DNA of 64,000 bases from Nitrospirota bacterium. Its GTDB lineage: Bacteria; Nitrospirota; Thermodesulfovibrionia; UBA6902; DSMQ01. The notes under the pieces are model-generated. The model was given only the letters and a program-made list of their open reading frames with translations. It did no database searches and had not been told where the DNA came from. The translations under genes and the position numbers were made by a program. The stretch spans positions 673 to 64,672 of the forward strand of contig JACRGX010000069.1 in assembly GCA_016212185.1 (NCBI GenBank), given 5' to 3'. Shown here one piece after another: positions 848 through 62,124 of the stretch (within the stretch, counting starts at the first letter, position 1; every line of letters starts with the position of its first letter).

Positions 848-962
848 ATTTTGTTCCTTATTAACTACATCTTAAAAAGAAAAAACTTTTTAAAAAATCT
901 GTGTTAATCTGTGCAATCTGTGGCTAAATTCAGTTTTGTTTTTCTCCGTGCCCTCTGTGGTT

Positions 963-1976
963 TTATGTTTTATCTTTTTTCTTCTTTATCGCCCCGAATT
1001 GATCTGTTTTTATTCCTCTGTCAATCAGCGGGGCAAAGCAGTTCATAAGCAGTATTGCAAACATAACGCCTTCTGGAAAGCCGCCCTTTAACCTTATCAG
1101 CATCGTAATGACTCCGCATCCAATGCCGAATATTACCTGCCCCTTTCTTATTGAAGGGCATGTGACATAATCTGTTGCCATGAAAAATGCGCCGAGCATA
1201 AGCCCGCCGCTTAGAAGATGAATGACCGGGTCGCCGGTAAATAGTGCGCCCTTTCCGCCGAATATCCATGCAAGCGCTGCAACTGTTCCGAGAAATGAAA
1301 AGGGGATATGCCATGTGATATATCCCCTGTAAATGAGGAATGCCGCTCCGAAAAGCAGCGCGATTGCAGATGTTTCACCGAGCGAGCCGCCCCTGTTTCC
1401 GGTAAGGAGCTGCATGTAGAGATGCGCCTTGTCTCCAAAAATTTCCATGAGCTTTCCAATGCCTTCTTCCTTTAAAATGCCCAGAGGCGTTGCAGTTGTT
1501 TTTGCATCCATTTTAATAAAAAGCGCAGTCGGCTCTGTCCACACGGTCATTGCCTTGGGCCATGAAATTAGCAAAAAAGCCCTGCCGATGAGCGCAGGGT
1601 TAAAGATGTTGTAGCCTAATCCGCCGAAAAGCTGTTTTGTAATGATGATTGCCACAAAAGAGCCGACTATCGGGATGTAAAAGGGAATGGATGGCGGAAG
1701 GTTCATTCCAAGGAGAAGCCCTGTTAAAAATGCGCTTCCATCGCTTACCGTGCTGTTTATTTTAAGGGCTTTTTTATAGATGTACTCGGAAAGCACCGAC
1801 GATCCGATGCTGAGCGATAAAATCCAGAGCGCCCTTGGTCCAAAGAAATAAACAGACATTAAAAATGAAGGCAGCAAAGCCAGATTGACAGTCCACATGA
1901 TGCGGCTGACAGACTCCTCGCCTTTTACATGAGGACTGACGGAAACTATTAATTCATGTTCTTTCTTCTCAGCCAA
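963..1976 (-). CDS. rnfD: Rnf complex subunit D (NqrB/RnfD family)
   Basis: Polytopic membrane protein with the conserved C-terminal GGLMLGAFFMATDYVT flavinylation region. Confidence 0.9.
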   Translation of the reverse strand: MAEKKEHELIVSVSPHVKGEESVSRIMWTVNLALLPSFLMSVYFFGPRALWILSLSIGSSVLSEYIYKKALKINSTVSDGSAFLTGLLLGMNLPPSIPFYIPIVGSFVAIIITKQLFGGLGYNIFNPALIGRAFLLISWPKAMTVWTEPTALFIKMDAKTTATPLGILKEEGIGKLMEIFGDKAHLYMQLLTGNRGGSLGETSAIALLFGAAFLIYRGYITWHIPFSFLGTVAALAWIFGGKGALFTGDPVIHLLSGGLMLGAFFMATDYVTCPSIRKGQVIFGIGCGVITMLIRLKGGFPEGVMFAILLMNCFAPLIDRGIKTDQFGAIKKKKDKT

Positions 1977-2040
1977 GTTTTTTCTACCCGTGACCCCTTG
2001 ACACCTTAATTTTTATGGTTCTTCCGACTGTTGTGTGGAT

Positions 2041-2116
2041 GTCATTCCCGCAAGCAAAGCGCGTCGGGAATCCTTTTGAGCACCCCTCGGAAAGATTCCG
2101 GACAAGCCGGAATGAC
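2041..2116. repeat. Nested palindromic element, GTCATTCC...GGAATGAC family, copy 1
   Basis: gtcattcccgcaagc...cgggaatc ... attccggacaagccggaatgac. Lies in the rnfC-rnfD spacer. Same architecture as the copies at 18178, 22425, 28824, 33382 and 48904. Confidence 0.8.
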
Positions 2117-5527: not shown

Positions 5528-6439
5528 TTAATTCTTAACTTTTAACTTTTCACTGTTTTTTGCCCTCGGGTGCGCCTTGTCGTAAACCTCCATGATATGG
5601 GCAATGTCCACATGGGTGTATTTCTGTGTTGTTGAAAGCGATGAATGCCCCAGCAATTCCTGGATTGTCCTCAGGTCAGCGCCGCCGTGAAGCATGTGAG
5701 TCGCACAAGTGTGTCTTAAGGCGTGGGGACCTAAGTGATTCTTAAGCGCGACCATCCTGCTGTACTTTACTACTATACGTCTGACGCTCCTGTCTGTCAA
5801 CCTTTCACCGCGGTTATTCAGAAACAGCGCCTGTGATTTTTTCTTTATTGCGATTCTTTCAGGAAGATAATTCTTAAGCGCATCAACTGCTTTTGACCCG
5901 ATAGGGACTATTCTCTCTTTTTTCCCTTTTCCCTTGACCCTCAAAAGGAACTCTTTCATGTCAAAATCATTCATGTCAAGAGTTGTCAGCTCTGATACCC
6001 TGAGCCCTGATGAGTAAAGGAGTTCAAGTATGGCTTTATCCCTGGACATGCTGAATGTCTCGCCCTTTGGGGCATCTACAAGCGAAAATACCTCGTCAAT
6101 CGTGAGAAATTTTGGCAGGGCTTTAGGAACTTTAGGGCTTGAGACGAGTTTAGCGGGATTTTTTTTGACAATGCCTTCCCTGTTTAGGAACTTGAAGAAA
6201 GACCTGATGGTTGCAAGCTTTCTTGCAATGGAGGTCTTTTTGAGTTTTCTGCTGTAAAGTGATGCAAGAAAGCTTCTTATGTCCAGATTGTCAATTTCCT
6301 GTGGTTTTTTGTCCATAAATGAAAAAAACTCTTCAAGGTCTTTATTGTATGCCCTGAGGGTGTGGATAGATACGTCACGCTCCGCCCTTAGTGAAATGTT
6401 GAATTGCTCAATGTATTTGTTCAAATTTGTTTGCTCCAC
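5528..6439 (-). CDS. xerC: Tyrosine site-specific recombinase XerC/XerD
   Basis: Phage-integrase SAM-like N-domain and catalytic [12 protein letters not shown]...[15 protein letters not shown]. Classical xerC-hslV-hslU synteny. The last codons (SEKLKVKN) are encoded by a word-repeat arm. Confidence 0.8.
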
Positions 6440-6518
6440 TTAAAAATATATTCTAACAGGTCAGAGTTGAGATGGCACAATGTTTTTTTACTCATCCTCC
6501 ATCCTTCAACCTTCATCC

Positions 6519-7712
6519 TTACGATATCCTCATAAAATATCCAGCCAGAGCCGCAAGCAGAATTAATAAAACTCCCTTGATTATTTTCCGGTATATCCCT
6601 GCCATTTCAGCCTTAAAGTACTCTCTTGTAAGCACAAGGCACAGATGGACAGGTGAGAGCAGGACGCCTGTGTAGCCGGAGGCAAATGCAAATGAGATAG
6701 AGGCTATATTCTGCGTATTTTCAAGACCTAAGATTATCGGGAATGTACTGCCTACAAAACCTACTGTCAGCCCTGTGAGCAGTCCTGAAATAAATGGGAT
6801 GATGAAAAGCACCGGCAGTGCAGGAATCCCTTTTTCCGAAAAAAAAGTGCTTATATTTAATACCGCGCCTGAGGCATTGAGCACTGCCTTGAATGTCATT
6901 ACGCCTAAGATGATTGCGATAATCTCAAAGGAAAATCCCTCCCTGATTGTTACCGTGATATCCTTGAAGGAATATCTTAAAAATATGAACAATCCTAAAA
7001 TCACGGCTCCCATGCTCAAAGAGATATCAACATGGAAAAATATCACCATAATTAAAATTAAACTCAGCGGCAGAAAACTCATCAGTCCGCGTACTGTGAT
7101 TGTCTTAAAGCCTTCTTTATGAACTCCCACTCCTTTAAGTCCCCAGAGAATTCCGCCTATGATTAGACAGACGGAGTAGGGCAGGTTTGCAATTATAAGG
7201 CTTCTCAGCGGATATCCAGAAATCGCAGATGCGAGGACAACGCCGGGATAAAGCGGAAGTATGAACTCCCACGGGTGTCTGAACCAGTAATTGATGAACG
7301 CCTTTTTTTCAGGGGAGACTTTAATCTCCTTTGACGCCTCTTCAACCATAGGCGCTGAAAAAAGGGCGCCGCCCATAGACGGCAAAAGCCCTATCAGTGC
7401 AGGCATTGACGCCATCAAAATTCTCCTGTCCATAACCATTCCCCTGAATGAGTCCATCATTTCCTGCATCAGTCCTTTTTCCCTTGTAATGTTTTCAAAT
7501 ATTCTTATCAGTGTAAGGGCAATTGCAAGCATGAGCGTCGTCTTATCAGTGACTGCTTTTAATAAAGCCCTGAGAAAGTCTCCGGGCGCAAGCAGGTAAA
7601 AAACCGACAGGATGACTGAAGATAAAACCATTACAAGCCCTAAGTTCCAGCGCTTTTTCAGCAGCAGGACGATGATTGCGAATACAGCTGTTATTTTCAG
7701 TATGTCAGGCAT
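6519..7712 (-). CDS. Polytopic membrane protein, possibly DUF401 / ion-transporter superfamily
   Basis: 397 aa with about 10 hydrophobic segments and no catalytic motif recognised. The family assignment is from memory only. Confidence 0.45.
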   Translation of the reverse strand: MPDILKITAVFAIIVLLLKKRWNLGLVMVLSSVILSVFYLLAPGDFLRALLKAVTDKTTLMLAIALTLIRIFENITREKGLMQEMMDSFRGMVMDRRILMASMPALIGLLPSMGGALFSAPMVEEASKEIKVSPEKKAFINYWFRHPWEFILPLYPGVVLASAISGYPLRSLIIANLPYSVCLIIGGILWGLKGVGVHKEGFKTITVRGLMSFLPLSLILIMVIFFHVDISLSMGAVILGLFIFLRYSFKDITVTIREGFSFEIIAIILGVMTFKAVLNASGAVLNISTFFSEKGIPALPVLFIIPFISGLLTGLTVGFVGSTFPIILGLENTQNIASISFAFASGYTGVLLSPVHLCLVLTREYFKAEMAGIYRKIIKGVLLILLAALAGYFMRIS

Positions 7713-7723
7713 GAAGTATATTA

Positions 7724-7870
7724 AGTGTCAGAGTGTCAAAGTGTCAAAGTGTTAGAGTGTCAGAGTGTCAAAGCATCAGAGTGTCAAAGCGTCAAAATGA
7801 AAAAATAAAAACAAGTTTTATGCTAAAATTACCGAGTGCCTATCAAAGCGTCAAAGTGTCAGAGTGTCAG
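7724..7870. repeat. Degenerate 8-bp word arrays (GTGTCARA) bracketing a 45-bp unique core
   Basis: Nine tandem units gtgtcaga/gtgtcaaa/gtgttaga/gcatcaga/gcgtcaaa at 7724-7796. Three to four more lie at 7842-7870 in the same orientation. Confidence 0.85.
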
Positions 7871-8747
7871 AAAAAAATCCACTCTCAGAATCGGCAAAAT
7901 TCCGTATGCCAATTTGTTTCCTATTTATCACTATCTTGAGGACAAATGCAGAAATGCAGGATATAAGTTTGTCAAAGGTGTGCCGTCCGCACTGAATAAA
8001 AAGCTGAGAGATGGGGAAATAGACATAAGTCCGTCGTCATCCATAGAATTTTTAAAATGCAGAGATAAATATTCAATCGTACCGTGGCTTTCTTTAAGCG
8101 CCGAAGGCCCTGTATGCAGTATTTTTTTATTTTCAAAATACCCGTTGGAATCGCTTGATAATAAAACCATTGCAGTTTCTTCCCAGTCTGAAACTTCCGT
8201 CGCTCTGCTTAAAATTATTCTCAGGGATTTTTATTCACTCAAGTGCAAATTCACAGAAGTAAACAGCAGTTCTGTCAGAAAGATACTTTCTGATTTTTCC
8301 GCCTGCCTGCTTATCGGAGACGATGCGATGAAGGCGAGAAAGGCCGTAGCCGGCAAGGATGAAGGAACAAAGCTGAAGGATGAAAAACAACTTCTTCATA
8401 ATTCAACTTTCAACCTTCAACCTTCAACCCTCCATGTTTACGACCTTGGTGAATTATGGTTTAAACACACAGGCCTGCCGTTTGTATTTGCACTCTGGAT
8501 TGTAAAGAAGAAGACCCTTTCTGAGAAAAAAGAGCTTATCATAAGCTTCACATCTGATTTAGTTCGGGCGAAGGAGTATGCATACAAAAAATTTTCCCTA
8601 ATTGCAAAACATGCATCCCATAAGAAATGGCTTAGTGAAAAAGAACTTGTTCAGTACTGGAAATGCATTTCGTATGATTTTACGGACAGGCATATGAAAG
8701 GGCTTTGCTTGTTTGAGAGGCATGCACTTGGTAAAAAACGTTTTTAA
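7836..8747 (+). CDS. mqnA: Chorismate dehydratase MqnA (futalosine menaquinone pathway, DUF178/PBP-like)
   Basis: RIGKIPYANLFPIYHYL...GVPSALNKKLRDGEIDISPSSSIEF and C-terminal LPFVFALW. The start is uncertain: GTG at 7836 lies inside the word array. The CDS carries an in-frame repeat insertion at 8354-8433. Confidence 0.75.
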   Translation: MPIKASKCQSVRKKSTLRIGKIPYANLFPIYHYLEDKCRNAGYKFVKGVPSALNKKLRDGEIDISPSSSIEFLKCRDKYSIVPWLSLSAEGPVCSIFLFSKYPLESLDNKTIAVSSQSETSVALLKIILRDFYSLKCKFTEVNSSSVRKILSDFSACLLIGDDAMKARKAVAGKDEGTKLKDEKQLLHNSTFNLQPSTLHVYDLGELWFKHTGLPFVFALWIVKKKTLSEKKELIISFTSDLVRAKEYAYKKFSLIAKHASHKKWLSEKELVQYWKCISYDFTDRHMKGLCLFERHALGKKRF

Positions 8748-8770
8748 ACACACGCCTCTTAATGAAGGTA

Positions 8771-8930
8771 ACAAAGGCATATATCCCTTCAAAACTTTAA
8801 GAATACAACCATAATTATTATCTGTCATGCTGCAAAAAGTTTTAAGCATTTGCTTTCTGAACTATTTGTAAAAAGGCAGCATGACATTTAAGGTGTTGCC
8901 TTAAAGTTTTTCAGGCACACATGCCTTTGT
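8771..8930. mobile_element. MITE-like element, about 160 bp, copy A
   Basis: Terminal inverted repeats acaaaggcatatatcccttcaaaactttaagaatacaac / gttgccttaaagtttttcaggcacacatgcctttgt. Inner inverted repeat gtcatgctgc / gcagcatgac. No ORF. Confidence 0.7.
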
Positions 8931-8953
8931 TATATATTGCTTTTAATACAGCG

Positions 8954-10788: not shown

Positions 10789-10961
10789 AGTGCTCAGGAA
10801 TATATGCCTTCAAAACTTTAGAAAGCAACTTGCCTGCCGGCAAATATTATTAAATGTCATGTTGCAAATGTTAAGCCTTTTTGCTCAGGACACTGATTTA
10901 AAAGGCAACATGACTCTAATGTGTTGCACTAAAGTTTTTCAAACATATATCCCTGAGCACT
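10789..10961. mobile_element. MITE-like element, copy B
   Basis: agtgctcaggaatatatgccttcaaaactttagaaagcaac ... gttgcactaaagtttttcaaacatatatccctgagcact. A related shorter inverted-repeat unit follows at about 10999-11100. Confidence 0.7.
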
Positions 10962-14199: not shown

Positions 14200-15624
14200 A
14201 TGAAAGACAAATACCCCCTGCTTCTTGGCGGCAGGCATGTTGAAACAACAGATTTTTTAAATGTAATAAATCCGTTTAACGGCAAGCAAATCACAAGTGT
14301 TTGCCGTGCGTTGCAAAAAGAGGCAGAAACAGCAATTGATATTGCTGACAAGGCAAAAGACATTATCTCAAAAATGCCTTCGCATGAAAAAGCCGGTATC
14401 CTCTCAAACATCTCCAATGGAATCAGCGCAAAAAAGGAAGAGCTTGCAAAGATTATTACTTTGGAATGCGGCAAGCCAATTTCAGATTCAAGGGCAGAGG
14501 TTGACAGGGCGGCGCTCACGTTTCAAATCGCCGCTGAAGAGGCATCAAGAATCGGCGGAGAACTTATTCCTTTGGACAGGAATAAAATCTCTGAAGGCAG
14601 ATGGGGCATGACAAGGAGATTTTCTGCAGGCCCGGTATTCGGCATTGCGCCCTTTAATTTTCCATTAAATCTCGTCAGCCATAAGATTGCGTCGTCCATT
14701 GCCGCAGGCAATCCAATAATACTTAAACCTGCGTCAAAGACGCCTGTTACCGCGCTGATGCTCGGAGATATTATTATGGATTCAGGTTTGCCTGAAGGAT
14801 GCCTCAGCATAATTCCTTGCAGTAATGAGGTCGCCGGAAAGATTGTCACAGATGAAAGGATTAAGGTATTCAGCTTTACAGGCAGTGCATCAGTCGGCTG
14901 GAGTTTAAAATCAAAGGCAAATCAGAAAAAGGTGATTCTTGAGCTTGGCGGGAACGCCGGTGTCATTATTGATGAAGCCTGCGACCTTGAATATGCGACA
15001 TCAAGATGCGTCACAGGCGCTTTTTCATATTCCGGACAGGTTTGTATCTCGGTGCAGAGGATTTATATTCATGAGAAGGTCTATGAAAAATTTCAGGAGA
15101 GTTTTCTTAAAAAGGTTAAGACGTTGAAAATAGGAGATCCCCTTGATGAATCTACAAACATAGGGCCGATGATAAATGCTGAAAATATTTTGCGTGTTGA
15201 GGCATGGATTAAAGAGGCGGTGGACAAAGGCGCAACCGTGCTTACAGGCGGAAAAAAGAACGGCAATTTTTACGAGCCTACTGTGCTTGGAAATACAACG
15301 CCGGAGATGAAGGTCAACTGCATGGAGGTGTTTGCGCCGATTGTGACTCTGACAAAGATTAAGGACTTTAAAGAAGGGCTGGATGCCGTTAATAATTCTA
15401 TTTACGGGCTGCAGGCAGGGGTGTTTACGGACAATTTAAAACATGCTTACACGGCATTTGAAGCCCTTGAAGTTGGAGGGGTTATTATCAATGATGTACC
15501 GGCATACAGGGTTGACCATATGCCTTACGGCGGGGTAAAGATGTCAGGCTTTGGGCGTGAAGGGATAAAATACGCAATTGAGGAGATGACGGAGCTGAGG
15601 CTCATGGTGGTGAATCTGAAGTAG
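14200..15624 (+). CDS. NAD(P)+-dependent aldehyde dehydrogenase (GapN/lactaldehyde-DH-like)
   Basis: Catalytic Glu in LELGGNAG and catalytic Cys in YSGQVCISVQR. FTGS cofactor motif. 474 aa. Confidence 0.85.
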   Translation: MKDKYPLLLGGRHVETTDFLNVINPFNGKQITSVCRALQKEAETAIDIADKAKDIISKMPSHEKAGILSNISNGISAKKEELAKIITLECGKPISDSRAEVDRAALTFQIAAEEASRIGGELIPLDRNKISEGRWGMTRRFSAGPVFGIAPFNFPLNLVSHKIASSIAAGNPIILKPASKTPVTALMLGDIIMDSGLPEGCLSIIPCSNEVAGKIVTDERIKVFSFTGSASVGWSLKSKANQKKVILELGGNAGVIIDEACDLEYATSRCVTGAFSYSGQVCISVQRIYIHEKVYEKFQESFLKKVKTLKIGDPLDESTNIGPMINAENILRVEAWIKEAVDKGATVLTGGKKNGNFYEPTVLGNTTPEMKVNCMEVFAPIVTLTKIKDFKEGLDAVNNSIYGLQAGVFTDNLKHAYTAFEALEVGGVIINDVPAYRVDHMPYGGVKMSGFGREGIKYAIEEMTELRLMVVNLK

Positions 15625-16394: not shown

Positions 16395-16560
16395 AGCAGG
16401 CATAGATACCTTCAAAAACTTTAGAAAAGCAACAAGATTTATTTAGATGCTATGTTGCAAATATTTGAAGGTTTTCATCTAAATCCATACGTTTAACTAT
16501 TGCAACATATCATATCAGATGTGTTGCAATAAAGTTCTTTCAGGCATCAACGCCTGCTTA
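16395..16560. mobile_element. MITE-like element, copy C, in the trpE-trpG spacer
   Basis: agcaggcatagataccttcaaaaactttagaaaagcaac ... gttgcaataaagttctttcaggcatcaacgcctgct. Confidence 0.65.
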
Positions 16561-16636
16561 ACGCTTAATGCCTACCTCTTAACAAATAACAAATAACTTT
16601 TAACCTGCCCAAAAAACCGGCAGGTAAGCTCTTAAC

Positions 16637-18118: not shown

Positions 18119-18177
18119 TTAGTATTATAACCTAACAGACAGTGAAAAGTTAAAAGTGAAGAGTGAAAAATGTTTCT

Positions 18178-18265
18178 GTCATTCCGTGCCTGACACGGAA
18201 TCCAGACGTCTTCCCTTTGAAAATGGATTTAAACCACTAGATTCCCCGATCAAGTCGGAGAATGA
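18178..18265. repeat. Nested palindromic element, GTCATTCC family, copy 2
   Basis: gtcattccgtgcctgacacggaatccag...attccccgatcaagtcggagaatgac. Bracketed by inverted GTTAAAAG word arrays at 18139-18177 and 18266-18300. Confidence 0.8.
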
Positions 18266-18336
18266 CGTGTTTTAACTTTACACTTTTAACTTTTAACTTG
18301 GAAATTTGTCCCGAAGTTTCGGGACAAATTTCCGTT

Positions 18337-18760: not shown

Positions 18761-19038
18761 TTTTTGATCCTGCTAAGCACGGCTGCTTTAGCATCGTTAT
18801 GTTTAATCCCTTGTCCGCCTTCAATCTGGTTAATAGATGTTTGTATATCCTGAAGGAGTTCAATCCTTTCCTGCATTGACTCAAATTCATCAGCGTCAAG
18901 CAAAACAGCCACGCCTTTCCCATGCTGCGTAATAATAAGCGGACGTTTTGTATCATGTATTTTTTTAATAAAGGAAGCGATTCCAGTCCTAAATTCAGAC
19001 ATCGGTCTGATATCTTCATTGACTTTTAATCTTTTCAT
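18757..19038 (-). CDS. Phd/YefM-family antitoxin
   Basis: MSEFRTGIASFIKKIHDTKRPLIITQHGKGVAVLLDADEFESMQE. An AT-rich palindrome, gtacaatataatgtacattataccgtac, lies just upstream. Confidence 0.8.
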   Translation of the reverse strand: MKRLKVNEDIRPMSEFRTGIASFIKKIHDTKRPLIITQHGKGVAVLLDADEFESMQERIELLQDIQTSINQIEGGQGIKHNDAKAAVLSRIKK

Positions 19039-20017: not shown

Positions 20018-20134
20018 TCACTTTTTTAATACAGTTAACAGTTGACGGATGACAGATGACAGTGAACGGTAATCAGTGAACTGCCTGCCAAAGCAGGCTT
20101 GCCTGCCGTAAAGTTTTTAAGCTAATATAATTCA

Positions 20135-22424: not shown

Positions 22425-22504
22425 ATCATTCCCGCGTGTTTTAAGCGGGAATCCAGAGATTTTTTTAAAGGGAAATGGATTCCCCAATTAAATCGGGGAA
22501 TGAC
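22425..22504. repeat. Nested palindromic element, GTCATTCC family, copy 3
   Basis: atcattcccgcgtgttttaagcgggaatccag...ggattccccaattaaatcggggaatgac. Confidence 0.8.
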
Positions 22505-22716
22505 ATTTTTAAACATATTTTCAGAGCAATGACGGATTTAAAGGTATTTTCGGTTCAATGACGGACAAGGGTGATTTTCAAACTCCTTTGTAATCCATGT
22601 ACTTCGGCTTAACGGGGTTTACTTTTTGGCAGTATTTTGATAAGTTACAAGCCATGCAACAGAGCATGTTTGCGTTTTTTGAGGAGAAGGAAGGGCATTT
22701 AAAGGAGGATTCACAT

Positions 22717-22986: not shown

Positions 22987-23096
22987 AAAACAAAGGGGTC
23001 AAGTGATAAAGGATTCAAGGGGTCAAGTGAAAAACTTTTTAAAACCAACACTTGAACCCTCGAACCCTGGAATCCTTGAATCCTGAAAAAAAACAA

Positions 23097-24856: not shown

Positions 24857-24861
24857 ATACA

Positions 24862-26127: not shown

Positions 26128-26161
26128 GAAAGTTAAAAGTTGAGAGTTAAAAGTTAAGGAT

Positions 26162-27167: not shown

Positions 27168-27324
27168 CAAAGGCATATATGCCCTCAAAACTTTAAGAAA
27201 GCAACTGTGATTATTATTTGTCATGCTGCAAAAAGTTTTAAGTATTTGCTTTTGGACTATTTAATACAGGCAGCATGACTTTTAATGTGTTGCCCTTAAA
27301 GTTTTTCAGGTACATATGCCTTTG
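27168..27324. mobile_element. MITE-like element, copy D
   Basis: caaaggcatatatgccctcaaaactttaagaaagcaac ... gttgcccttaaagtttttcaggtacatatgcctttg. Followed by a half GTCATTCC element (27332-27354). Confidence 0.7.
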
Positions 27325-36687: not shown

Positions 36688-37628
36688 AAATACAGATTAC
36701 AGAACACAGATTACAGAGCACAGATTACAGAACACGGAAAAACAGTCGGGGTTCTGGGCTCTGGTCCCTGGGTTCTAAGAGTGGGTTTACCTTAACTGAA
36801 TTATTGCTTGCGCTTGTCATAACGGCCCTTGCGACTGCGGCGGTTTACACGTCTTTTATAGTTCAGCAGCGTTCGTTTGTATCTCAGGATCAACTGGCAG
36901 AGACACAGGTATCTTCAAAAATTGCTTTTGACATGATTGCCAATGATGTAAGAAATGCCGGTTTCGGATATCCGGCTGCTGAGAATCCTTCCATAAACGG
37001 CAGCACCGGAGCGGTCACTATAAGTGATGCGGCAGGACCGAACAACAGCGATACTATTACCCTTCTTGCAGGGTTCAAAAGTATTGCAACTCTTTATGGT
37101 GCAGATGCCGTTATAGGAGGCACAACCATCAGTATAAGCTACACAGGCACAACTTATTTTAATTTAACCGACAGGAGATACCTGAGCCTTGACGGGCTGG
37201 ATTTTGCTCAGATAAACAACTGCACCCTGCAGGATGGGAATTGCTCGTCTTTATATGCCTTGACCCTTGACAGGGGAATAAATAAGCCGTTTCCTATCGG
37301 CAGGTTTATATATCTTGTTGAGAGCGTTACATATCAAATCAGCGGAAGCGATCTGCAGAGGGTTTCAACAAGCAGAGGCACTGAAATAGTCGCCAATAAC
37401 ATTGAGGATTTTCAGGTTGCAGCCGTAGATCAGGACGGAGACGGCAAGACGGACCGGCTCAGGGTGAGTCTCCTTGCGCGCACTGCAAATGAAGACCAGA
37501 CGCTTGAGCCGTCCACAAAACCGTACTATTCTACCGGAATTGTCATTGAAGGCAACACAACGCTTGACACGGATAAATTCAGGAGAAGGGTGTGGACGAT
37601 GGAACTATCGCTGAGGAATCCGATATGA
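36684..37628 (+). CDS. pilW: Type IV pilus minor pilin PilW
   Basis: ...GSKSG|FTLTELLLALVITALATAAVY and a PilW-like body. ATGA overlap. Unusually long 33-aa leader encoded by word repeats. Confidence 0.75.
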   Translation: MKIQITEHRLQSTDYRTRKNSRGSGLWSLGSKSGFTLTELLLALVITALATAAVYTSFIVQQRSFVSQDQLAETQVSSKIAFDMIANDVRNAGFGYPAAENPSINGSTGAVTISDAAGPNNSDTITLLAGFKSIATLYGADAVIGGTTISISYTGTTYFNLTDRRYLSLDGLDFAQINNCTLQDGNCSSLYALTLDRGINKPFPIGRFIYLVESVTYQISGSDLQRVSTSRGTEIVANNIEDFQVAAVDQDGDGKTDRLRVSLLARTANEDQTLEPSTKPYYSTGIVIEGNTTLDTDKFRRRVWTMELSLRNPI

Positions 37629-47399: not shown

Positions 47400-47541
47400 A
47401 ATAATTTTTTAAAAGGGGTCAAGGGTTCAAGCGGCTAAGTGTTAAAGCAGCCTACGAAATTCGTTTGTAAATTATTAGTTATTCGGAAAACGAATAACTG
47501 ATAACTATGATTCACTTGAACCCTGGAATCCATGAACCCTG

Positions 47542-48970
<1,429 letters not shown>

Positions 48971-49062
48971 AAAAAACAATAGCAAAAAGCTTTTGGAGCA
49001 TTACACTGAGAAATGAGAAGTGATAACTAAGCACTAAGAACTGAGAAGTGTCATTTAATTTC

Positions 49063-50736
<1,674 letters not shown>

Positions 50737-51537
50737 TTAGTTGATATGCCACCGCCTTTCTGCTTTTTTTAAGTCTTCTGCCGTATCAATGCCGAATGTA
50801 TCATAAGGGGTTTCTTTTACCTTGATTTTCATGCCTGAGGCAAGCGCCCTGAGTTGTTCAAGCTTTTCAGTGAGTTCAAGTTTGTCAGGCGGCATTGAAG
50901 CAAACTTGAACAGGACGTCTTTTCTGTAGCCATATATGCCGATATGCTTGTAACAGCCGTAATGCGTGATGGGTAATGCGTGATGAGTTGAATCTGAAAT
51001 TTGAAATTTGTCCCGAATAAGTCGGGATGAAATTTTCCAGAGGTCTCTGTTATATGGAATTGGCGCCCGTGAGAAATACATGGCAAAACCCTCATTGTCA
51101 AAAACAACCTTAACCACATTGGGAGATAAAATTTCTTCCGGATCCGTTATCTTCTTTGCGAGGGTGCTGATTGAGGCGCGCGAATCATCTGACAGAAGTC
51201 TTACAACATCATTCACCATCTCCGGCATGATAAACGGTTCATCCCCCTGAACATTTACGACTATATCGCAGTCTATACTGCCGGCAGCCTCTGCTATCCT
51301 GTCTGTGCCTGACTGGTGCTTCTCAGAAGTCATGACAACTTTTCCGCCAAACCCCAGGACTGTATCATAGATTTGCTTGCTATCAGTTGCAACAAGGGTG
51401 GTATTTATTGAATTCGCAGACGCAGCATGTTCGTAAACCCATTGGATAATTGGTTTTCCTTTAAGAGAGGCAAGGGGCTTGCCGGGGAACCGGGTGGAGT
51501 TAAAGCGAGCCGGAATTATTACAGCCGCCCTGTGCAT
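50737..51537 (-). CDS. kdsB: 3-deoxy-manno-octulosonate cytidylyltransferase
   Basis: IIPARFNSTRFPGKPL, VNVQGDEP and IGIYGYR. In-frame repeat insertion at about 50957-51036. Confidence 0.9.
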   Translation of the reverse strand: MHRAAVIIPARFNSTRFPGKPLASLKGKPIIQWVYEHAASANSINTTLVATDSKQIYDTVLGFGGKVVMTSEKHQSGTDRIAEAAGSIDCDIVVNVQGDEPFIMPEMVNDVVRLLSDDSRASISTLAKKITDPEEILSPNVVKVVFDNEGFAMYFSRAPIPYNRDLWKISSRLIRDKFQISDSTHHALPITHYGCYKHIGIYGYRKDVLFKFASMPPDKLELTEKLEQLRALASGMKIKVKETPYDTFGIDTAEDLKKAERRWHIN

Positions 51538-54018: not shown

Positions 54019-54255
54019 TTATAGTTCATCGCCGGGGATTGGTCTACGGCTTGGAACCTTAGCTAATATTCTCCTGAAATCTTCTTTCTTTGCTCTTTTT
54101 GCCCTTGCCTTCAAATAGTCTTCCGTTAACAAAGCAGAAATTTTCTCTGCCACTGCCGATGAAATAAATTGGTTAATAGACACCTTTTCTTTTTTTGCAA
54201 TTTCCCTGATATGACGATGAATTGATTCCGGCAATCTCAAACTCAAAGCGCTCAT
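54019..54255 (-). CDS. Ribbon-helix-helix (CopG/Arc-like) antitoxin
   Basis: LSLRLPESIHRHIREIAKKEKVSINQFISSAVAEKI. 4-bp overlap with the upstream PIN gene. Confidence 0.7.
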   Translation of the reverse strand: MSALSLRLPESIHRHIREIAKKEKVSINQFISSAVAEKISALLTEDYLKARAKRAKKEDFRRILAKVPSRRPIPGDEL

Positions 54256-54677
54256 AATATTTCCTCCATTAATTCTTTAGGTGTTATTGATTTTACGCCA
54301 AAACCCTCTGCCCCTCTGAAATCTTTCGTATTGTGAGTCACAATAAGCTTAGTCCCTGAAGCAATGGCTAATTCCAATATATGATCATCTTTAGGGTCAG
54401 ACAGACGAGGGCGCCACAGGAAATATATCTTTTGATGTTCGCTTACCAGACAAAAATAATTTAATATCTTCTCTGTATCGTGGTTTGATAAACCTAACGC
54501 CATCTGATTCCTTTTGAGAACGTCTTCATATTCAAACAGCAAAGTTGTAGAAATAATTATTTTAAGCTTTCCGTTTTCTATCGCCTGTAATACCCTAAAA
54601 GAAGCGCCCTTTGATGAATAAAGTCCTGAGTAAAGCACATTCGTATCAAGAACTATCCGCGCTTTTTTATCGGGCAT
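54252..54677 (-). CDS. PIN-domain toxin
   Basis: IVLDTNVLYS (first acidic residue), internal EYEDV and C-terminal DDHILELA...THNTKDF. Confidence 0.8.
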   Translation of the reverse strand: MPDKKARIVLDTNVLYSGLYSSKGASFRVLQAIENGKLKIIISTTLLFEYEDVLKRNQMALGLSNHDTEKILNYFCLVSEHQKIYFLWRPRLSDPKDDHILELAIASGTKLIVTHNTKDFRGAEGFGVKSITPKELMEEIL

Positions 54678-54895
54678 ATTATAATACTATATGTGGTATC
54701 ACTACATTGTCAAGAGGTAATTTTTTGCGATTAGACTAATGTCCAGAACAGAAGTTGAAAAACTTGATATGTCAAGAATTAAGTGTGGTGTTCCATAGTG
54801 GATGAGTAAAATGGTGTGGATAATGCGGCGCTGAGCGATGCCCCGAAGGGGCATTCGTCTCCAGGCTAATGATTATGATTTGATTTTGTGATTTT

Positions 54896-55176
54896 GGGGT
54901 CAGGTCTTGTTTCTTGCATTAGCTGCTTTTTAGCACTCTACTTACTACAGAATAATGAATCCCAACGCAATTCGCAACGTCTTTCTGCGTATAACCATAT
55001 TTCTCTATTGCTTCTTTTGCTATCTTATTCCGTTTTGTTTTGTCTTTTATTATACTTTCATCAAATAACATGTCAAGCTTTGGCCTGTCTGCATATCTCT
55101 GGCTTTTAGGGATTTCTTTTTTATCCCGATACCCTTTATATTAATTTCTAAAATGCAAGAAACAAGACCTGACCCC
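54896..55176. mobile_element. 281-bp unit bounded by a perfect 25-bp inverted repeat and enclosing an HTH-gene remnant
   Basis: ggggtcaggtcttgtttcttgcatt (54896-54920) and its exact reverse complement (55152-55176). Minus-strand remnant ...RPKLDMLFDESIIKDKTKRNKIAKEAIEKYGYTQKDVANCVGIHYSVVSRVLKSS*. Confidence 0.6.
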
Positions 55177-55193
55177 AATCCTTGCTTTGATAA

Positions 55194-55601
55194 AAAAAAC
55201 TTCACGATGAGGATATTGCGGCGGGCTGCGCGGGCGTGTTTCTTGAGGATCAACTTGAAAGGAAATATCCGAGAGCCGCGAAGGATTTTGTCTGGCAATG
55301 GTTCTTTCCACAGCAATCATTGACCTTTGTGGCGGAAACGAAAGAGCGGCGGCGGTACCATTTGCATGAAAAGCATGTACAGGAAGCTCTTTACGAGGCT
55401 GTCAGGCGGGCGAAGCTCACCAAGCGTATTACGTCACACACCTTTCGCCGCAGTTTTGCCACGCACCTGCTTCAGGCTAATTACGACATACGGACAATCC
55501 AGACACTGCTCGGTCACAGTGATGTCAGAACTACTATGATTTACACTCACTGCGTGCCGAGCAAAACTGTAAAAGAGATGAAGAGCCCGCTGGATTTTTA
55601 A
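55194..55601 (+). pseudogene. 5'-truncated integron-type tyrosine integrase (IntI-like C-terminal half only)
   Basis: [20 protein letters not shown]...RRYHLHE (the IntI-specific extra segment), box [27 protein letters not shown] and the KSPLDF end. The in-frame stop at 55191 leaves no box I region. Confidence 0.75.
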
Positions 55602-55784
55602 TAACGAACACTCCGGTGCAGTTCCCTCAACCGTCTGCCTTATGTTAAAATGACACAGCGAGCGTATTACCTGTAGCTTGCTACAGTGTTAGCGAGCGAA
55701 TGTTATAAGAATTACATTCCTTGCATTTCAAGATTCTCTGTCCCGAAGTTTCTGGGATACAGAGAATCTTTAATTAATAGGGTA

Positions 55785-58631: not shown

Positions 58632-58679
58632 AGCCCGGTTAATTGTCCCGAAGCTTCAGGACAATTAATCGGGCTTTTT
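58632..58679 (+). terminator. Rho-independent terminator built on a GTCCCGAAG-type hairpin
   Basis: agcccggttaattgtcccgaagcttcaggacaattaatcgggct followed by tttt. Confidence 0.7.
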
Positions 58680-58692
58680 ATTAGACGCCAAA

Positions 58693-59076: not shown

Positions 59077-59123
59077 AGATTGTAAGCGGTTCAAACAGTT
59101 CAAATAAATAAAGGAGGAACAAA

Positions 59124-59669
59124 ATGCTCAAAGAGAAGAAAGAAGCATCAGTAGCACAAGTCATGACACGCAGAAAAATCTTAAAAGCCGTTTGCTGCGC
59201 GGGGGCAGTTGCGGCAGTTTCATCTGTTGCATTAGATAAAGCAGGCGCCGCTTTATCAGGCAGAACTTATCCGCAGGTAAAAATTGCAAATATCAAAAAT
59301 CTTCCGTCGGGAAAGACAATAAAATTTGATTACCCGCTTACTGGAAGAAAAAACATCCTTGTAAATCTGGGATGCAGCGCTGAAGGCGGCGCCGGCGCTG
59401 ACAAGAGCATTGTTGCGTACAGCATGTTTTGCACTCATCTGGGGTGCGCTGTTGATCTGGACAAAGAAAGCGGGATGCTGGTTTGCGAATGCCATCAAAG
59501 CATTTATGATCCGAAACAGAGCGGTAAGGTGGTTGAAGGCCCCGCGCCGAATAACCTGCCGATGATTTTATTGGAGATTGATAAGAACGGGGACATTTAT
59601 GCGGCAGGAGTTGCCGGTCTTATTTATGGACTTAGAAATAATCTACTTGACGGAGAGGAGATAAAGTAA
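59124..59669 (+). CDS. aioB: Rieske [2Fe-2S] small subunit of an arsenite-oxidase-type enzyme (AioB-like), Tat signal
   Basis: TRRKILKAV twin-arginine leader. Rieske boxes CTHLGC and CECHQS. The C-terminal ...NLPMILLEIDKNGDIYAAGVAGLIYG resembles AioB as I recall it. Confidence 0.75.
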   Translation: MLKEKKEASVAQVMTRRKILKAVCCAGAVAAVSSVALDKAGAALSGRTYPQVKIANIKNLPSGKTIKFDYPLTGRKNILVNLGCSAEGGAGADKSIVAYSMFCTHLGCAVDLDKESGMLVCECHQSIYDPKQSGKVVEGPAPNNLPMILLEIDKNGDIYAAGVAGLIYGLRNNLLDGEEIK

Positions 59670-62021
59670 ATGGGCAATGAAAAGGAATTTTCAAGGAGAG
59701 ATTTATTAAAGGTTTCAGCAGCAGCGGCGGCAGGGGCATGTGTGATAAACGGAATGCCTGTGTTTGCGGCAGGTAAATTTTCAGAAGCAAAGGCGGTTGA
59801 ATTTGCAGAGCTTCCGCCCGCACACGCAGAGACTTATGATACTGCCTGCCGTTACTGTCATGTTATGTGCGGATACAAGGTTTATATCTGGCCCAAAGGC
59901 ACAGGGCTAAAACCGGACAAGGCTAAATTTTATCCTGTTGAGAAGATGCGGGGCGACTGGCCCAATCCTGTTTTCACGGTTGAAGCCAAAAAGAACGGTA
60001 AAGACGTATCAATAATGATAGTGCCGGATAACAAAGACGTGGCAAGCGGATCAAACTACTCAGTCCGCGGGGCGTTCAATGCCCAGAGTTTGTATTCCGA
60101 GAAACTTCCGACAAGGATCCGTCTCAAAAAACCAATGATTCGCAAAGGCGGCAAGACAAGTCCTCTTGCGGAGGTTTCATGGGATGAAGCGATTGGATTC
60201 TGCGCGGAGAACTTTAGAAAAATTATCAATCAATACGGTCCTGACGCAATCGGCGCAGTTTACGGAGACTGGGGTTATCTGCAGAATACGCATGTATTGC
60301 TGAAGTGGCTCTTCACAGGAATTAAGTCCAGCACCCTTGCCGGCAACGGGTATCTCTTCTGGGGCGATGAAAGCTGGGGGCTTGCCGATGTGGTGGGTGC
60401 GGGCACCAGGTCGTTTACGTCGGAAGATTTTATAAAAACTAAACTCATTTTTTGCGCCGGAAAAAATCTAAAGGATACGGGTTCATCATGGTATTATCAG
60501 GCGTTGTCAACGGGCGGCATGAACAAGGGTGATATCAAAATGATACTGGTAGACCCGAGAAGGATTCAGATGGCAGAAGACGCAGAAAAAAGCGGCGGTC
60601 TTTTCCTCCAGATTAATCCGGGCACTGATGCAATACTCGGCGCGTCTTTGATGCATGTGCTCGTCATGCACGATTTGTATGACAAAGAATTTGTCCAAAA
60701 GCACACAACTGGTTTTGATACGCTCAAGCAGACTGTATTGAACAGCAGATTCGCACCTGAAAATGCTGAAAAGATTACCGGTATTCCGGCCGCAAAGATT
60801 ATAGCAGCCGCTGAGATGCTCGCAAAGCATAAAGGGCAGACAATGGTGCTTTTTGAAAAAGGAATTATGCATCAGGTGACAGGATACGAAAACGAAGTCG
60901 CATACAGCGCTATGGGAATTATTCTCGGCAATGCCGGAAAACCAGGCGCGTGCACATCCAGAGCCGGCGGACATCCGAGAGGGACCTGGGCGGACCCGCC
61001 TGCCCCAAACGGCGCAAGTTCCATGAGGAGCATCTGTGAAAAAATTGATAAGGGAGAAATAAAGTCGCTCTGGGCGTACATCAGCAACATTTACATACAG
61101 CTTCCCAACCTGAGCAAATATAAGCCTCAGATTGATAAGATGTTTCTTGTCGTGAATGAGATTTATCCCACAGACACGACAGCGGCTGCAGATGTAGTCT
61201 TCCCTGCTGCCACATGGGGAGAATGGAACACCATACAGGCAAGCGAAGACAGGAGGCTTCATATTCAGCAGGGCTTTATGGAAGCCCCCGGCGATGCAAA
61301 GCCGGACTGGTGGATTGTTGCCCAACTGGCAAAGCGGATGGGTTTGAGCGGGTATGACTGGAAAAACGAACAGGAGATTTATGATGATGTAAGAGCGCAG
61401 ACAAAAGGTTCATTTACCAGTGACATCTCAGAAATTGAATGGAAAGACCTTATAAAGTCAGGCACTAACGGCATTCAGTTCCCTTACAAAAACCGCAGGA
61501 GCATATCGCGGCTTTATTCTCTTGAGACAGAAGAAGTGATGGGAAGGCGCTTTAAACATGACGACGGCAAGGCGCACCTTGAACCTGTAAAGGCGCTTGC
61601 TGATTTTGACCCGTACAATCATCCTTTGAGAGACAAGATTACAAATGAGTATCCGCTCTGGATGATTATGCACCGGGCAAACGAAATCTGGAACACCGGC
61701 TATAACTTTTACAATAACGGGCTTAATGTACCGTTGACCCCGAATCTTTACGAGAGACTGCCCGAGCAGACTGTAAGCATTAATCCCAAAGACGCAAGGG
61801 CAATAGGCGTGAAAAGCGGAGACTGGGTTGCGGTTAATTCCAGAAACGGAAGTATGAAGGCAGTGGCAAAGGTAAACGGGCTGACGGCCCCCGGGGTTGT
61901 GGATGTCATGTCGCTTTATCCAAAGACTGAGTCAACGCCGAACATGGTGACGAGCGAGAAGGCGGACCCGAAGCTTGCCGAGTGGGACAGGATGGTGCCG
62001 GTGAATATTGTGAAGGTTTAA
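59670..62021 (+). CDS. aioA: Molybdopterin (bis-MGD) large subunit of an arsenite-oxidase-type enzyme (AioA-like)
   Basis: N-terminal C-x2-C-x3-C (CRYCHVMCGY) with no fourth Cys, and SGSNYSVRGA at the position of the AioA Ser ligand region. MopB core (VDPRR...INPGTDA) and a C-terminal MGD-binding barrel. Immediately follows the Rieske subunit. Confidence 0.75.
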   Translation: MGNEKEFSRRDLLKVSAAAAAGACVINGMPVFAAGKFSEAKAVEFAELPPAHAETYDTACRYCHVMCGYKVYIWPKGTGLKPDKAKFYPVEKMRGDWPNPVFTVEAKKNGKDVSIMIVPDNKDVASGSNYSVRGAFNAQSLYSEKLPTRIRLKKPMIRKGGKTSPLAEVSWDEAIGFCAENFRKIINQYGPDAIGAVYGDWGYLQNTHVLLKWLFTGIKSSTLAGNGYLFWGDESWGLADVVGAGTRSFTSEDFIKTKLIFCAGKNLKDTGSSWYYQALSTGGMNKGDIKMILVDPRRIQMAEDAEKSGGLFLQINPGTDAILGASLMHVLVMHDLYDKEFVQKHTTGFDTLKQTVLNSRFAPENAEKITGIPAAKIIAAAEMLAKHKGQTMVLFEKGIMHQVTGYENEVAYSAMGIILGNAGKPGACTSRAGGHPRGTWADPPAPNGASSMRSICEKIDKGEIKSLWAYISNIYIQLPNLSKYKPQIDKMFLVVNEIYPTDTTAAADVVFPAATWGEWNTIQASEDRRLHIQQGFMEAPGDAKPDWWIVAQLAKRMGLSGYDWKNEQEIYDDVRAQTKGSFTSDISEIEWKDLIKSGTNGIQFPYKNRRSISRLYSLETEEVMGRRFKHDDGKAHLEPVKALADFDPYNHPLRDKITNEYPLWMIMHRANEIWNTGYNFYNNGLNVPLTPNLYERLPEQTVSINPKDARAIGVKSGDWVAVNSRNGSMKAVAKVNGLTAPGVVDVMSLYPKTESTPNMVTSEKADPKLAEWDRMVPVNIVKV

Positions 62022-62124
62022 AAAGGGACGAATAAAAAGGCACTGAGGCGCAAAGGCGCTGAGGCACAAAACTTTGTTCTCCTACTTTGTGCCTTGGATG
62101 CTTTGTTCCTTTGTGCCTGTTTTT

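Follow-up and report, generated by a model that had tools for sequence, protein, structure and literature searches.

Heptamer-type repeats known from other bacteria

Tandem arrays of units of about seven nucleotides have been noticed since 1990 in scattered bacteria, and both their origin and their role are unsettled. In the present study, we describe fast-evolving arrays of this kind in a 64-kb stretch of DNA (43% G+C, contig JACRGX010000069.1; hereafter the window) from an uncultured Nitrospirota bacterium with Thermodesulfovibrionia-like relatives, where short unit sequences, here called words, follow one another directly in the spacers between genes and in places within the genes themselves. 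This kind of array is already described from cyanobacteria, Xanthomonas, Geobacter and giant sulfur bacteria, and Nitrospirota is a new phylum for it. Judging from sequence comparison, we hold it somewhat better than an even chance (a probability of about 0.55) that the arrays are simple sequence repeats (SSRs) of the heptamer class, of the same type as the cyanobacterial repeats and long SSRs introduced below, which would be born and turned over by slipped-strand duplication and tolerated without a dedicated function.

The short tandemly repeated repetitive (STRR) sequences of cyanobacteria, tandem heptamers dispersed through the genome, were reportedly described by Mazel in 1990. The words of STRR1-3 are CCCCAGT, TTGGTCA and CAACAGT; since none of them is tandem in the window, and since the host belongs to the Nitrospirota and not to the cyanobacteria, the window arrays are not STRR1-3. 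Elhai and colleagues are said to have found, in 2008, small dispersed repeats (SDR) of approximately 21-27 nt inserted in tandem heptamer arrays of Nostoc punctiforme, and by that description they resemble a 20-21-nt palindrome, CCTGCC...GGCAGG, that is dispersed and also stands inside arrays in the window and in a related locus (L086). The Rickettsia palindromic elements, defined families of 100-150 bp which are inserted in frame in protein genes and tolerated as extra surface segments, are not built of tandem 7-8-mers, unlike the arrays described here.

As PMC4679880 and PMC4692102 summarise the work of Mrazek et al. (2007), long SSRs with units of 5-11 nt are in excess in some bacterial genomes only, lie mostly in non-coding DNA and have heptamers as their commonest class; the origin proposed in these summaries is polymerase slippage, the 7 nt being related to the footprint of the polymerase or the length of DNA that it holds. 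By the class criteria given there, the window arrays agree in their tandem units of about 7 nt, their occurrence above chance, their non-coding bias and their variation in unit number between relatives, and they differ from the class, as so summarised, in being short (mode four) and degenerate (65-100% matches), in including 8-mers, in having many words and in often forming inverted arms.

In Xanthomonas (GGGAATC) and Nostoc PCC 7120 (GGGGA(C/T)T), heptamer arrays are dispersed between genes near the ends of open reading frames (ORFs), prefer four units and in some cases form opposite-strand pairs able to fold into stem-loops; two Xanthomonas species have arrays at the same intergenic sites, where their length and sequence vary, and a function was not found (Rehm et al. 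2015, PMC4692102). Their G-rich words resemble the AAGGGGTC and AGGGATT words of the window. However, one G-rich word dominates there and the preference for four units was put down to G-quadruplexes, whereas the window words are mostly not G-rich and their arrays, bar that at 26768-26795, lack the four G-tracts of that type; neither GGGAATC nor GGGGAYT is ever tandem in the window. Geobacter metallireducens carries tandem 7-9-mers, three to five in a row, which are paired on opposite strands with a varying distance from one member to the other, occur between and within genes, and fall into classes (GTTGCTYN x4, TCTCCGTS[Y] x3, MTYCTGA x5, GGACCGG x4) that each have a conserved consensus at 8-49 loci; insertion sequences lie beside some, and the sites were read as binding sites of global regulators (IHF/HU) (Aklujkar et al. 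2009, PMC2700814). The window has the same format, with about nine inverted pairs, a mode of four units and copies within genes, but none of these consensus words is tandem in it and the host phylum differs. Finally, the TAACTGA repeats known from marine Beggiatoaceae and from some cyanobacteria and Bacteroidetes are mostly intergenic rows of two to six heptamers, often just upstream of start codons and occasionally in ORFs, of patchy phylogeny, and have been proposed as translation elements of 5' untranslated regions (UTRs) (MacGregor 2015, PMC4679880). In that system one word dominates, related heptamers are rarely repeated and nearly all copies are direct, whereas the window has many words and inverted pairs; TAACTGA itself occurs in it three times singly and never in tandem, and the related locus L090 reads TTACTGA TTACTGA TAACTGA. 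The window has its format in common with the Xanthomonas and Nostoc, Geobacter, TAACTGA and STRR repeats and its words with none of them (TAACTGA, GGGAATC, GGGGAYT and the words of the Geobacter classes are all without tandem copies in it). We place the arrays with the heptamer-class SSRs, in a new phylum and outside the named word families.

Of the other repeat classes, which the original prediction had set aside, two do not fit either. The repeats of a CRISPR locus are 23-47 nt long and alternate with unique spacers of similar length, whereas the units here are of 7-8 nt and abut directly. A family of miniature inverted-repeat transposable elements (MITEs) has full-length members, terminal inverted repeats and target-site duplications, whereas loci with the same word share the unit alone. 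Repetitive extragenic palindromes or bacterial interspersed mosaic elements (REP/BIME) of the classical kind, in which a single conserved imperfect palindrome of 20-40 nt recurs at many extragenic sites and is linked to a REP-associated tyrosine transposase (RAYT), are a less probable fit: imperfect palindromes are present, but within the window their sequences differ by locus, several lie in genes, and there is no RAYT gene. As for ordinary microsatellites, the arrays stand apart from them in unit size but do fit the known heptamer-class SSRs (PMC4679880, PMC4692102, PMC2700814).

Abundance, format and turnover of the arrays

Arrays were called with Tandem Repeats Finder (TRF), the null being 50 dinucleotide-preserving shuffles of the window. 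Non-overlapping arrays of period 7 or 8 numbered 38, whereas shuffles averaged 3.3 and never exceeded 8, and 14 arrays reached a TRF score of at least 40 (0.06 in shuffles). The excess was confined to periods 7 (28 TRF rows vs 1.5 in shuffles) and 8 (12 vs 1.8) and to the multiples 14, 16, 21 and 24; period 9 (5 vs 1.4) lay under the level of unrelated loci and is not enriched, so that the predicted unit of 7-9 bp narrows to 7 and 8. Array density was 0.59/kb in the window and about 0.12/kb in 67 unrelated loci. Every array named in the original prediction was recovered by TRF, at its place or within a few bases of it, for example at 896-922 for the first of them and at 33781-33849 for that near 33.8 kb. 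The arrays are real and far above chance. Nor are they artefacts of assembly, a possibility for which that prediction had allowed: orthologous arrays are present in independent assemblies from four sources (ENA, NCBI, JGI and Logan).

With respect to location, arrays cover 8.6% of intergenic and 0.86% of genic bases, a tenfold difference. They were first placed in nearly every intergenic gap, but only 18 of the 41 gaps of at least 20 nt hold one; nor are they purely intergenic, as arrays or array hairpins stand in frame in five genes (mqnA, slt, lolD, pmbA and kdsB) and arrays also lie in two leader peptides and at several gene 3' ends. Compared with solved structures, the insertion adds about 22 residues to chorismate dehydratase (mqnA) and 11 residues to KdsB. 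For approximately 12 arrays, the distance from their end to a start codon is 25 nt or less, and positions include both orientations, gene 5' ends, gene 3' ends and the inside of essential genes. Their concentration in spacers from stop codon to ribosome-binding site, in leader peptides, in C-terminal tails and in loops fits tolerance rather than function. The purine bias of the sense strand is weak (0.60 vs 0.558 for genes). Arrays upstream of eno, zapA, lolC and the Rieske gene make longest-ORF calls too long there, and in practice such repeats produce false N-terminal extensions, odd C-terminal tails and low-complexity insertions in conserved proteins.

The modal copy number is four. Of the window arrays, 14 fall at 4.x copies, 7 at 3.x, one at 5.x and two at 6 or more; the corresponding figures in relatives are 29, 15, 8 and 5. 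Because TRF misses degenerate three-unit arrays but not those of five or more units, the drop above four is real. Part of the two-copy class (14 in the window, 25 in relatives) must be put down to chance, since shuffles yield almost solely two-copy arrays, about 3 per 64 kb. The preference for four holds for A/T-rich words (AAAGTTA, TTCAACC, ACAGTTC) and G-rich words alike, and a G-quadruplex pattern was found in one array only, lolD 26768-26795 (+; GGGG-TCAA x4, on the sense strand; 0.6 in shuffles). This independence of the word, together with the single motif, means that the explanation offered for Xanthomonas and Nostoc cannot be carried over to the window, and it argues against that explanation itself; G-quadruplexes as the basis of the arrays, with one motif in 64 kb, were ruled out.

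Comparison with relatives shows how the arrays change. The nearest genomes are metagenome-assembled genomes (MAGs) of uncultured Nitrospirota/Thermodesulfovibrionales; LysS is at most 72% identical to that of any GTDB species representative, and LolD homologues at 86-94% identity occur in groundwater and other metagenome assemblies. At lolD, the loci compared have LolD proteins 94% (L081), 88% (L084), 75% (L085) and 65% (L088) identical to that of the window. Its array has four units in the window and L081 vs one in L084, the difference of 24 nt being exactly three units with the frame kept, and the array downstream of lolC has four units in the window vs five in L081. The lolD units are GTCAAGGG x4 in the window and TTCAAGGG x4 in L085, both perfect, CAAGCGGG/CAAGCGAG x3.6 in L088 and a mixture in L081; more distant LolD proteins do not have the segment. 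Because the encoded peptide cannot have an 8-nt period, this homogeneity is a property of the DNA, and the array has evolved in concert across lineages only 65-75% identical. An 8-mer array that stays periodic, in frame and homogenised in an essential gene at such distances has rarely been documented for repeats of this class. In the same PmbA loop as in the window, the two relatives that a metagenome scan returned (58-60% identical) have AGGGAT/AGGGGT heptamer arrays.

Equally seldom documented is the exchange of one word for another at a single junction. Downstream of lolC, the flanks align well, but L086 reads CGTGACG CGTGATG CGATAGT (CGTGAYG) where the window, L081 and L084 have AAAGTTA, and L085 has a word other than AAAGTTA; between lysS and lolC, the window has ACAGTGA x2.6 and L081 and L085 an inverted AGATRCA/ATCATGW hairpin. 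Since point mutation cannot interconvert such words at about 90% nucleotide identity, arrays must be lost and re-formed. Between trpE and tRNA-Gly, the L089 spacer measures 45 nt and has neither array nor MITE, while the window and L085 have in common a GTCATTCC MITE between arrays, with differing right-arm words. Array density varies about fivefold among related genomes.

The slt array bears on where a word comes from. Its insertion, 31 residues in the window, is not in the orthologues of L085 and L089, whose site carries a proto-repeat, CAGAGCAGATAG; L089 reads ...AACAGAGCAGATAGC..., a 7-nt proto-repeat of CAGAAYC, and in this case the array arose from a local proto-repeat. Unit number and sequence do vary among orthologous spacers, the comparison which the original prediction had proposed, and whole-unit changes, the slt proto-repeat and word replacement at one junction favour, for much of the pattern, its suggestion of a local generating process over the spread of one sequence.

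Small elements sit within several arrays. A perfect 20-nt palindrome, CCTGCCTGCCGGTAGGCAGG, interrupts the orthologous lolD array solely in L086, and because the array is common to distant relatives and the palindrome present in just one, the array is the older of the two. This sole datable case reverses the order expected from slippage at element ends, one of the mechanisms first put forward. Related 20-21-nt hairpins (CCTGCC...GGCAGG) lie inside the TAACAAA array (16604) and the CAGAAYC array (20953), two matches vs 0.05 expected, and at 18178 and 48904 the arms of arrays enclose GTCATTCC...GGAATGAC elements. The 20-nt palindrome CCTGCCTGCCGG(C/T)AGGCAGG (L086 1458-1477; L090 7898-7917 and 19986-20005; L091 11523-11542; L006 14070-14089) is kept with hardly a base changed in several Nitrospirota genomes, whose G+C content is 42-57%, and is a dispersed element of very small size; arrays as landing sites of such a palindrome are likewise rarely on record.

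The claim that each locus has its own word stands insofar as words are many, word diversity being very high and the 7-mer units forming a continuum, but several words recur. AAGGGGTC/CTTGAAYCC is found at about seven loci (near 2.0, 23.0, 26.8, 31.1, 34.2, 47.4 and 57.3 kb), AAGTTAA/AGTGAAA at five (5.5, 18.1, 18.3, 26.1 and 43.6 kb), AAGGATG/TTCAACC at three (6.5, 8.4 and 33.2 kb) and AAAGGCAC at two (33.8 and 62.0 kb, with the common end ATAAAAAGGCAC). Among 87 arrays with no fewer than 2.5 copies, of which 75 have period 7 and 12 have period 8, taken from the window and twelve related loci, consensus units of different loci lay within one mismatch, in any rotation and on either strand, in 161 pairs vs 95.6 +/- 8.1 for letter-permuted words. 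Given words common to several loci and genomes, word sequence is not fully locus-specific. Outside the unit, flanks and cores of same-word loci are dissimilar, the best extended match being 78% over 37 nt (33787 vs 62032). One hidden motif behind all words was considered and rejected, the best hub (A5T2-like) gathering 15 of 75 words vs at most 10 in the null.

Arrays are paired in both ways that had been predicted, inverted at about nine loci (8355, 18141/18270, 22993, 29364, 30360, 33781, 34140, 47413 and 62036) and direct around a core at three (7723/7843, 20934/20997 and 48835/49004). Folding covered eight of the inverted pairs, all but 18141/18270: the long imperfect hairpins expected of them were borne out for six, with z-scores of -3.6 to -5.75 and imperfect stems of 30-40 positions; the other two score -1.4 and -1.5. 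The paired fraction is flat, 0.77-0.83 in successive 8-nt blocks from the loop (a measure biased by being taken on the predicted structure itself), and at 22993 variants are, by eye, not mirrored between the arms; growth of the hairpins outward from a perfect core was rejected on the flat pairing, and templated hairpin extension, as originally proposed, finds no support in complementarity of about 0.8 at every distance from the loop or in arms that do not mirror each other's variants. The transcribed strand gives the better-folding RNA in 2 of 7 cases, both in-gene hairpins fold far better as antisense, a scan of 16-36 kb for intrinsic terminators returned no array hairpin among its matches (whose count equalled that of shuffles), and an Rfam scan of the window returned two tRNAs only; from these tests together, there is no evidence for selection of the hairpins at the RNA level. 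A check by eye for target-site duplications where hairpin arrays end showed none consistently, the single possible case being AAAACAA flanking 22993-23084, on which we build no claim. Taken as a whole, the observation that started this work is partly confirmed and its interpretation partly supported; the arrays, known in kind, lend themselves well to comparative work. The features are collected in Table 1.

Table 1. Repeat arrays of the window and the MITE-like element between two of them (fold z, z-score of the predicted fold)
Position	Strand	Units	Location and remarks
896-924		AATCTGTG(N1-2) x3, units of 9-10 nt	rnfG/rnfD spacer; TRF period 9, 2.8 copies
960-978		GTTTTAT x2.7	Overlaps rnfD 3' end (C-terminal tail); TRF
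5535-5554		TTAACTT x2.9	Codes XerC C-terminal tail; TRF
6492-6520		TCATCCT x4.1	3' end of DUF401-like gene (C-terminal tail); word family also at 8355-8429 and 33219
7723-7796	+	AAGTGTCA x9.2	Higher-order periods 16 and 24; left member of direct pair
7843-7869	+	TCAAAGTG x3.4	Right member of direct pair; 46 nt after left array, 11 nt upstream of mqnA start
8355-8429	+	Inverted pair AAGGATG x4.3 / TTCAACC x4.0	In frame in mqnA (chorismate dehydratase); fold z -3.56
16580-16624	+	TAACAAA x2.6	Embedded hairpin CCTGCC-N9-GGCAGG (16604-16624)
18141-18169	+	AGTGAAA/AGTTAAA x4.1	Left arm of inverted pair
18178-18266		GTCATTCC...GGAGAATGAC	MITE-like element between two array arms
18270-18299	-	TTTTAAC x4.3	Right arm of inverted pair with 18141
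20038-20107	+	ACAGNNR, about x6	Spacer from tRNA-Cys to slt; followed by GCCTGC/CCTGCC hairpins
20925-21028	+	Direct CAGAAYC arrays (20934-20954, 20997-21028)	In frame in slt/TPR gene; around hairpin CCTGCCTACCGGACAGGCAGG (20953-20973)
22993-23027 / 23054-23084		Inverted pair AAGGGGTC x4.4 / GAACCCTC x3.9	Fills zapB/zapA spacer; fold z -3.92
24859-24876	+	ACAGTGA x2.6	lysS/lolC junction
26129-26157	+	AAAGTTA x4.1	From lolC stop to next start
26767-26800	+	AGGGGTCA x4.2, perfect	In frame in lolD; sole G-quadruplex motif of the window
29364-29432		Inverted pair CACAGATT / AATCTGTG	queF/hyp316 spacer; fold z -4.66
30360-30450		Inverted pair TCCAAAT x4 / ATTTGAN arrays	hyp316/hpt spacer; fold z -1.41
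31052-31085	-	CCTTGAAT x2.4	Single arm of AAGGGGTC word family; just upstream of consensus promoter for nfeD
33219-33243	+	AAGGATG x3.6	Begins 3 nt past stop of SPFH-family gene
33781-33883		AAAGGCAC x7.4 and shorter inverted arm	Enters 3' end of PGPGW gene (C-terminal tail); convergent genes; fold z -4.81
34140-34232	-	Inverted pair AGGATTCA x4 / GAACCCTN x4	In frame in pmbA/tldD; fold z -1.52
36211-36240	+	ACAGTTC x4.3	Within prepilin leader peptide
36691-36735	+	TACAGAT/ACAGAAC x5.9 (period 14 x3.1)	Within leader peptide of next prepilin
47413-47431 / 47507-47541		Inverted pair AAGGGGTC / GAACCCTG	ftsB/eno spacer; 60-nt core with its own hairpin; fold z -5.75
48835-48880 / 49004-49047		Direct AACTGAG/AAATAAG arrays	Flank GTCATTCC MITE 48904-48970; upstream of eno
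49054-49082		TTTCATT x4.1	Codes PyrG C-terminal tail
50959-51010		GTRATGS x4 (TRF period 14 x1.9) and AATTTGA x2.9	In frame in kdsB
62036-62118		Inverted pair AAAGGCAC/TGAGGCGC x4 / CTTTGTGC x4.2	Molybdopterin oxidoreductase/Rieske spacer; end ATAAAAAGGCAC common with 33787 array; fold z -5.70

Explanations of the arrays

The comparisons show that a local stretch of 7 or 8 nt becomes tandemly duplicated, that the array gains and loses whole units, that its units are homogenised in concerted evolution, and that arrays disappear and form anew, with a different word, at one and the same site. The driver would be slipped-strand misalignment in replication or repair, with the register set by the replication or repair machinery of the host; persistence would be expected where it does no harm, i.e., in spacers from stop to start, signal and leader peptides, C-terminal tails and surface loops, with only in-frame lengths surviving in coding sequence. 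The arrays further offer landing sites to the CCTGCC...GGCAGG palindromes (20-21 nt) and the GTCATTCC MITEs, and such landing by small mobile elements accounts for the layouts of array, core and array; about nine form the two inverted arms of an imperfect palindrome of about 30 bp. We infer slippage from the observed pattern taken together with the explanation current in the literature (PMC4679880, PMC4692102).

Several points weigh against this. Plain slippage predicts neither the sharp preference for 7-8 nt nor a limit at about four units (4.x vs 5.x copies: 14 to 1 in the window, 29 to 8 in relatives). Words recur with similar ends (33787/62032; the CTTGAATCCTG ends), and the GGGKTCAA-type word is found also in distant relatives and viral contigs, a recurrence that looks more like descent or sequence preference than a purely local origin. 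The register, the limit and this recurrence leave room for mobile foldback elements, a binding protein or a dedicated writer. The fivefold differences in density suggest a lineage-specific factor, and the mechanism itself is drawn from the comparison of a few loci.

In a first alternative, the arrays would be small non-autonomous foldback elements of MITE-like kind, with arms of tandem 7-8-mers, spread by transposition, each word being a family and the window sampling many of them. The seven or so AAGGGGTC/CTTGAAYCC loci do have arms with similar outer ends, the 33787 and 62032 arrays have ATAAAAAGGCAC... in common (78% over 37 nt), permuted words resemble one another less than the real words do, composite insertions within mqnA, pmbA and slt are missing in orthologues, modules of several arrays recur several times within 8 kb of an Atribacterota locus (L042), and similar arrays occur in viral contigs. 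However, families spread in this way would be expected to resemble one another past the unit and to leave target-site duplications, and neither flanks nor cores of same-word loci do the former, nor was the latter consistently seen; a change of copy number by a single unit in situ, a slt word that matches the proto-repeat of the ancestral coding sequence, lolD and pmbA arrays that are orthologous across deep divergence and so not recent insertions, and the very high diversity of words along a 7-mer continuum all tell against it. We regard it as unlikely.

Somewhat less likely again is that the arrays are functional cis-elements, whether sites for an abundant DNA-bending or global regulator, translation elements of the 5' UTR, or RNA hairpins that end or stabilise transcripts. 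Such a role would suit the retention of array position at orthologous junctions while the sequence changes, the dozen or so arrays ending close to start codons, the modal four units, about 30 bp, seen in several phyla (PMC4692102, PMC2700814), and the six inverted pairs that fold far better than shuffles. Yet a single sequence-specific binder cannot recognise dozens of words; the arrays lie in both orientations, at either end of genes and inside essential ones; close relatives lack arrays at the same junctions; and, at the level of nucleic acid structure, the sense strand is the better folded in 2 of 7 cases only, the in-gene hairpins do much better as antisense, no array hairpin was called as an intrinsic terminator, Rfam matched nothing besides the two tRNAs, and one array alone could form a G-quadruplex.

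The constancy of the format (a register of 7 or 8 nt, a stop near four units, about 30 nt, for any word, and a direct or inverted arrangement) allows another reading, namely that a dedicated process writes or limits the arrays (a polymerase of repair or retro type, or a protein that measures about 30 bp) in place of generic slippage; it would be common to lineages of patchy distribution (Nitrospirota, Atribacterota, Geobacter, Xanthomonas, cyanobacteria, Beggiatoaceae), with their phages as possible carriers. We consider this distinctly doubtful. Its enzymatic form, in which a reverse transcriptase or templated-insertion repair polymerase would make about four copies of a local template of 7-8 nt, directly or by snap-back, seems very improbable. 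Although it would answer to a register of 7-8 nt and a mode of four for any word, to direct and inverted copies alike, to abrupt word replacement at one site among close relatives and to strong differences in density between related genomes, a candidate gene for it was not identified, gains of single units, the loss of three units and the concerted evolution need no such enzyme, and the inverted arms show neither mirrored variants nor a gradient of complementarity from the loop. Chance similarity or assembly artefact, to which some two-copy rows at chance level might be ascribed, can be practically dismissed, with an excess of more than tenfold over shuffles (more than 200-fold at a TRF score of at least 40) and orthologous arrays in independent assemblies from four sources.

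Related arrays elsewhere and other repeats of the window

Arrays of comparable kind were also met with in sequences further afield. Four IMG/VR contigs annotated as viral (L092-L095) carry the 8-mer words CCTTGACC/TGAACCCT/AGGGTTCC in arrays of 9-16 copies, and words of GGGKTCAA type occur in IMG/VR contigs of 41-61% G+C, also as inverted pairs; L093 (61% G+C) has two inverted pairs of 8-mer arrays around GAGTATTTA, and in L094, taken from a 170-kb contig, 8-mer arrays stand amid dozens of 6-9-mer arrays. The 8-kb Atribacterota locus (L042, Ca. Sediminicultor UBA9311) has a heptamer-array density of 2.9/kb, five times that of the window, again with a mode of four units; blocks of AAAGCGA, AATTCAA, TTAAGTT, TTTACGC and ACGAGAT arrays recur there three or four times, and the arrays of this locus travel within larger repeated modules. 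In a related Nitrospirae MAG (L013), degenerate 9-mer arrays of TAACGCAAT (x17 at 15277-15433 and x9 at 18932-19012) lie next to heptamer arrays.

The genes among which the window arrays lie are largely housekeeping ones (rnfGDC, hslUV, xerC, mqnA, uvrC, trpEG, lysS, lolCD, eno, pyrG, kdsB), alongside which lie a minor-pilin/PilY1 cluster of a type IV pilus, a molybdopterin oxidoreductase gene with those for Rieske and cytochrome b proteins, and two tRNA genes. Just downstream of the CCTTGAAT array and upstream of nfeD, at 31104-31133, stands a perfect sigma-70 consensus, TTGACA-18-TATAAT. Upstream of the pilin-like cluster, a palindromic unit of 23 nt, ATAAATATGTAATCCATTACATA, stands twice in tandem (35359-35404) and has the look of an operator.

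Copies of the MITE-like GTCATTCC...GGAATGAC element were seen at 2041-2116, 18178-18266, ~22436-22520, ~27330-27355, ~28820-28930, ~33400-33490 and 48904-48970. They carry internal ATTCC-N-GGAAT hairpins, and that at 18178 has an orthologous copy in L085 but none in L089; when translated, the elements yield spurious peptides that lengthen ORF calls, e.g., that of eno. Right after an element of this type and upstream of zapB, a 29-nt unit, TTTAAACATATTTTCAGAGCAATGACGGA, is repeated twice (22508-22565).

A second, larger palindromic repeat of about 160-190 nt, GGCATATATGCCTTCAAAACTTTAGAAAGCAAC ... GTTGC..AAAGTTTTTCAGGCA.ATGCC, is present in at least five intergenic regions with copies 70-87% alike and no Rfam match (8760-8953, 10796-10954, 16398-16470 and 27168-27324, with partial copies at 28737-28770 and 33307-33333). 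A related copy stands at zapB/zapA in L085, and the repeat looks MITE-like because the close relatives L081 and L082 have other sequence at lolD/pyNP. A family of small hairpins of the form (A/T-rich)GTCCCGAAG(Y)TTCGGGAC(A/T-rich) occurs at 18296-18335, 51003-51035, 55739-55755 and 58643-58664, and at 6766-6826 in L085; the copy at 51003-51035 lies in the kdsB frame and adjoins the heptamer arrays there. Finally, the region 54252-55601 holds a gene for a PIN-domain toxin, what may be the remnant of an antitoxin, and a truncated fragment of a tyrosine integrase; a long inverted repeat (GGGGTCAGGTCTTGTTTCTTGCAT ... ATGCAAGAAACAAGACCTGACCCC) flanks them, which suggests the relic of a mobile element.

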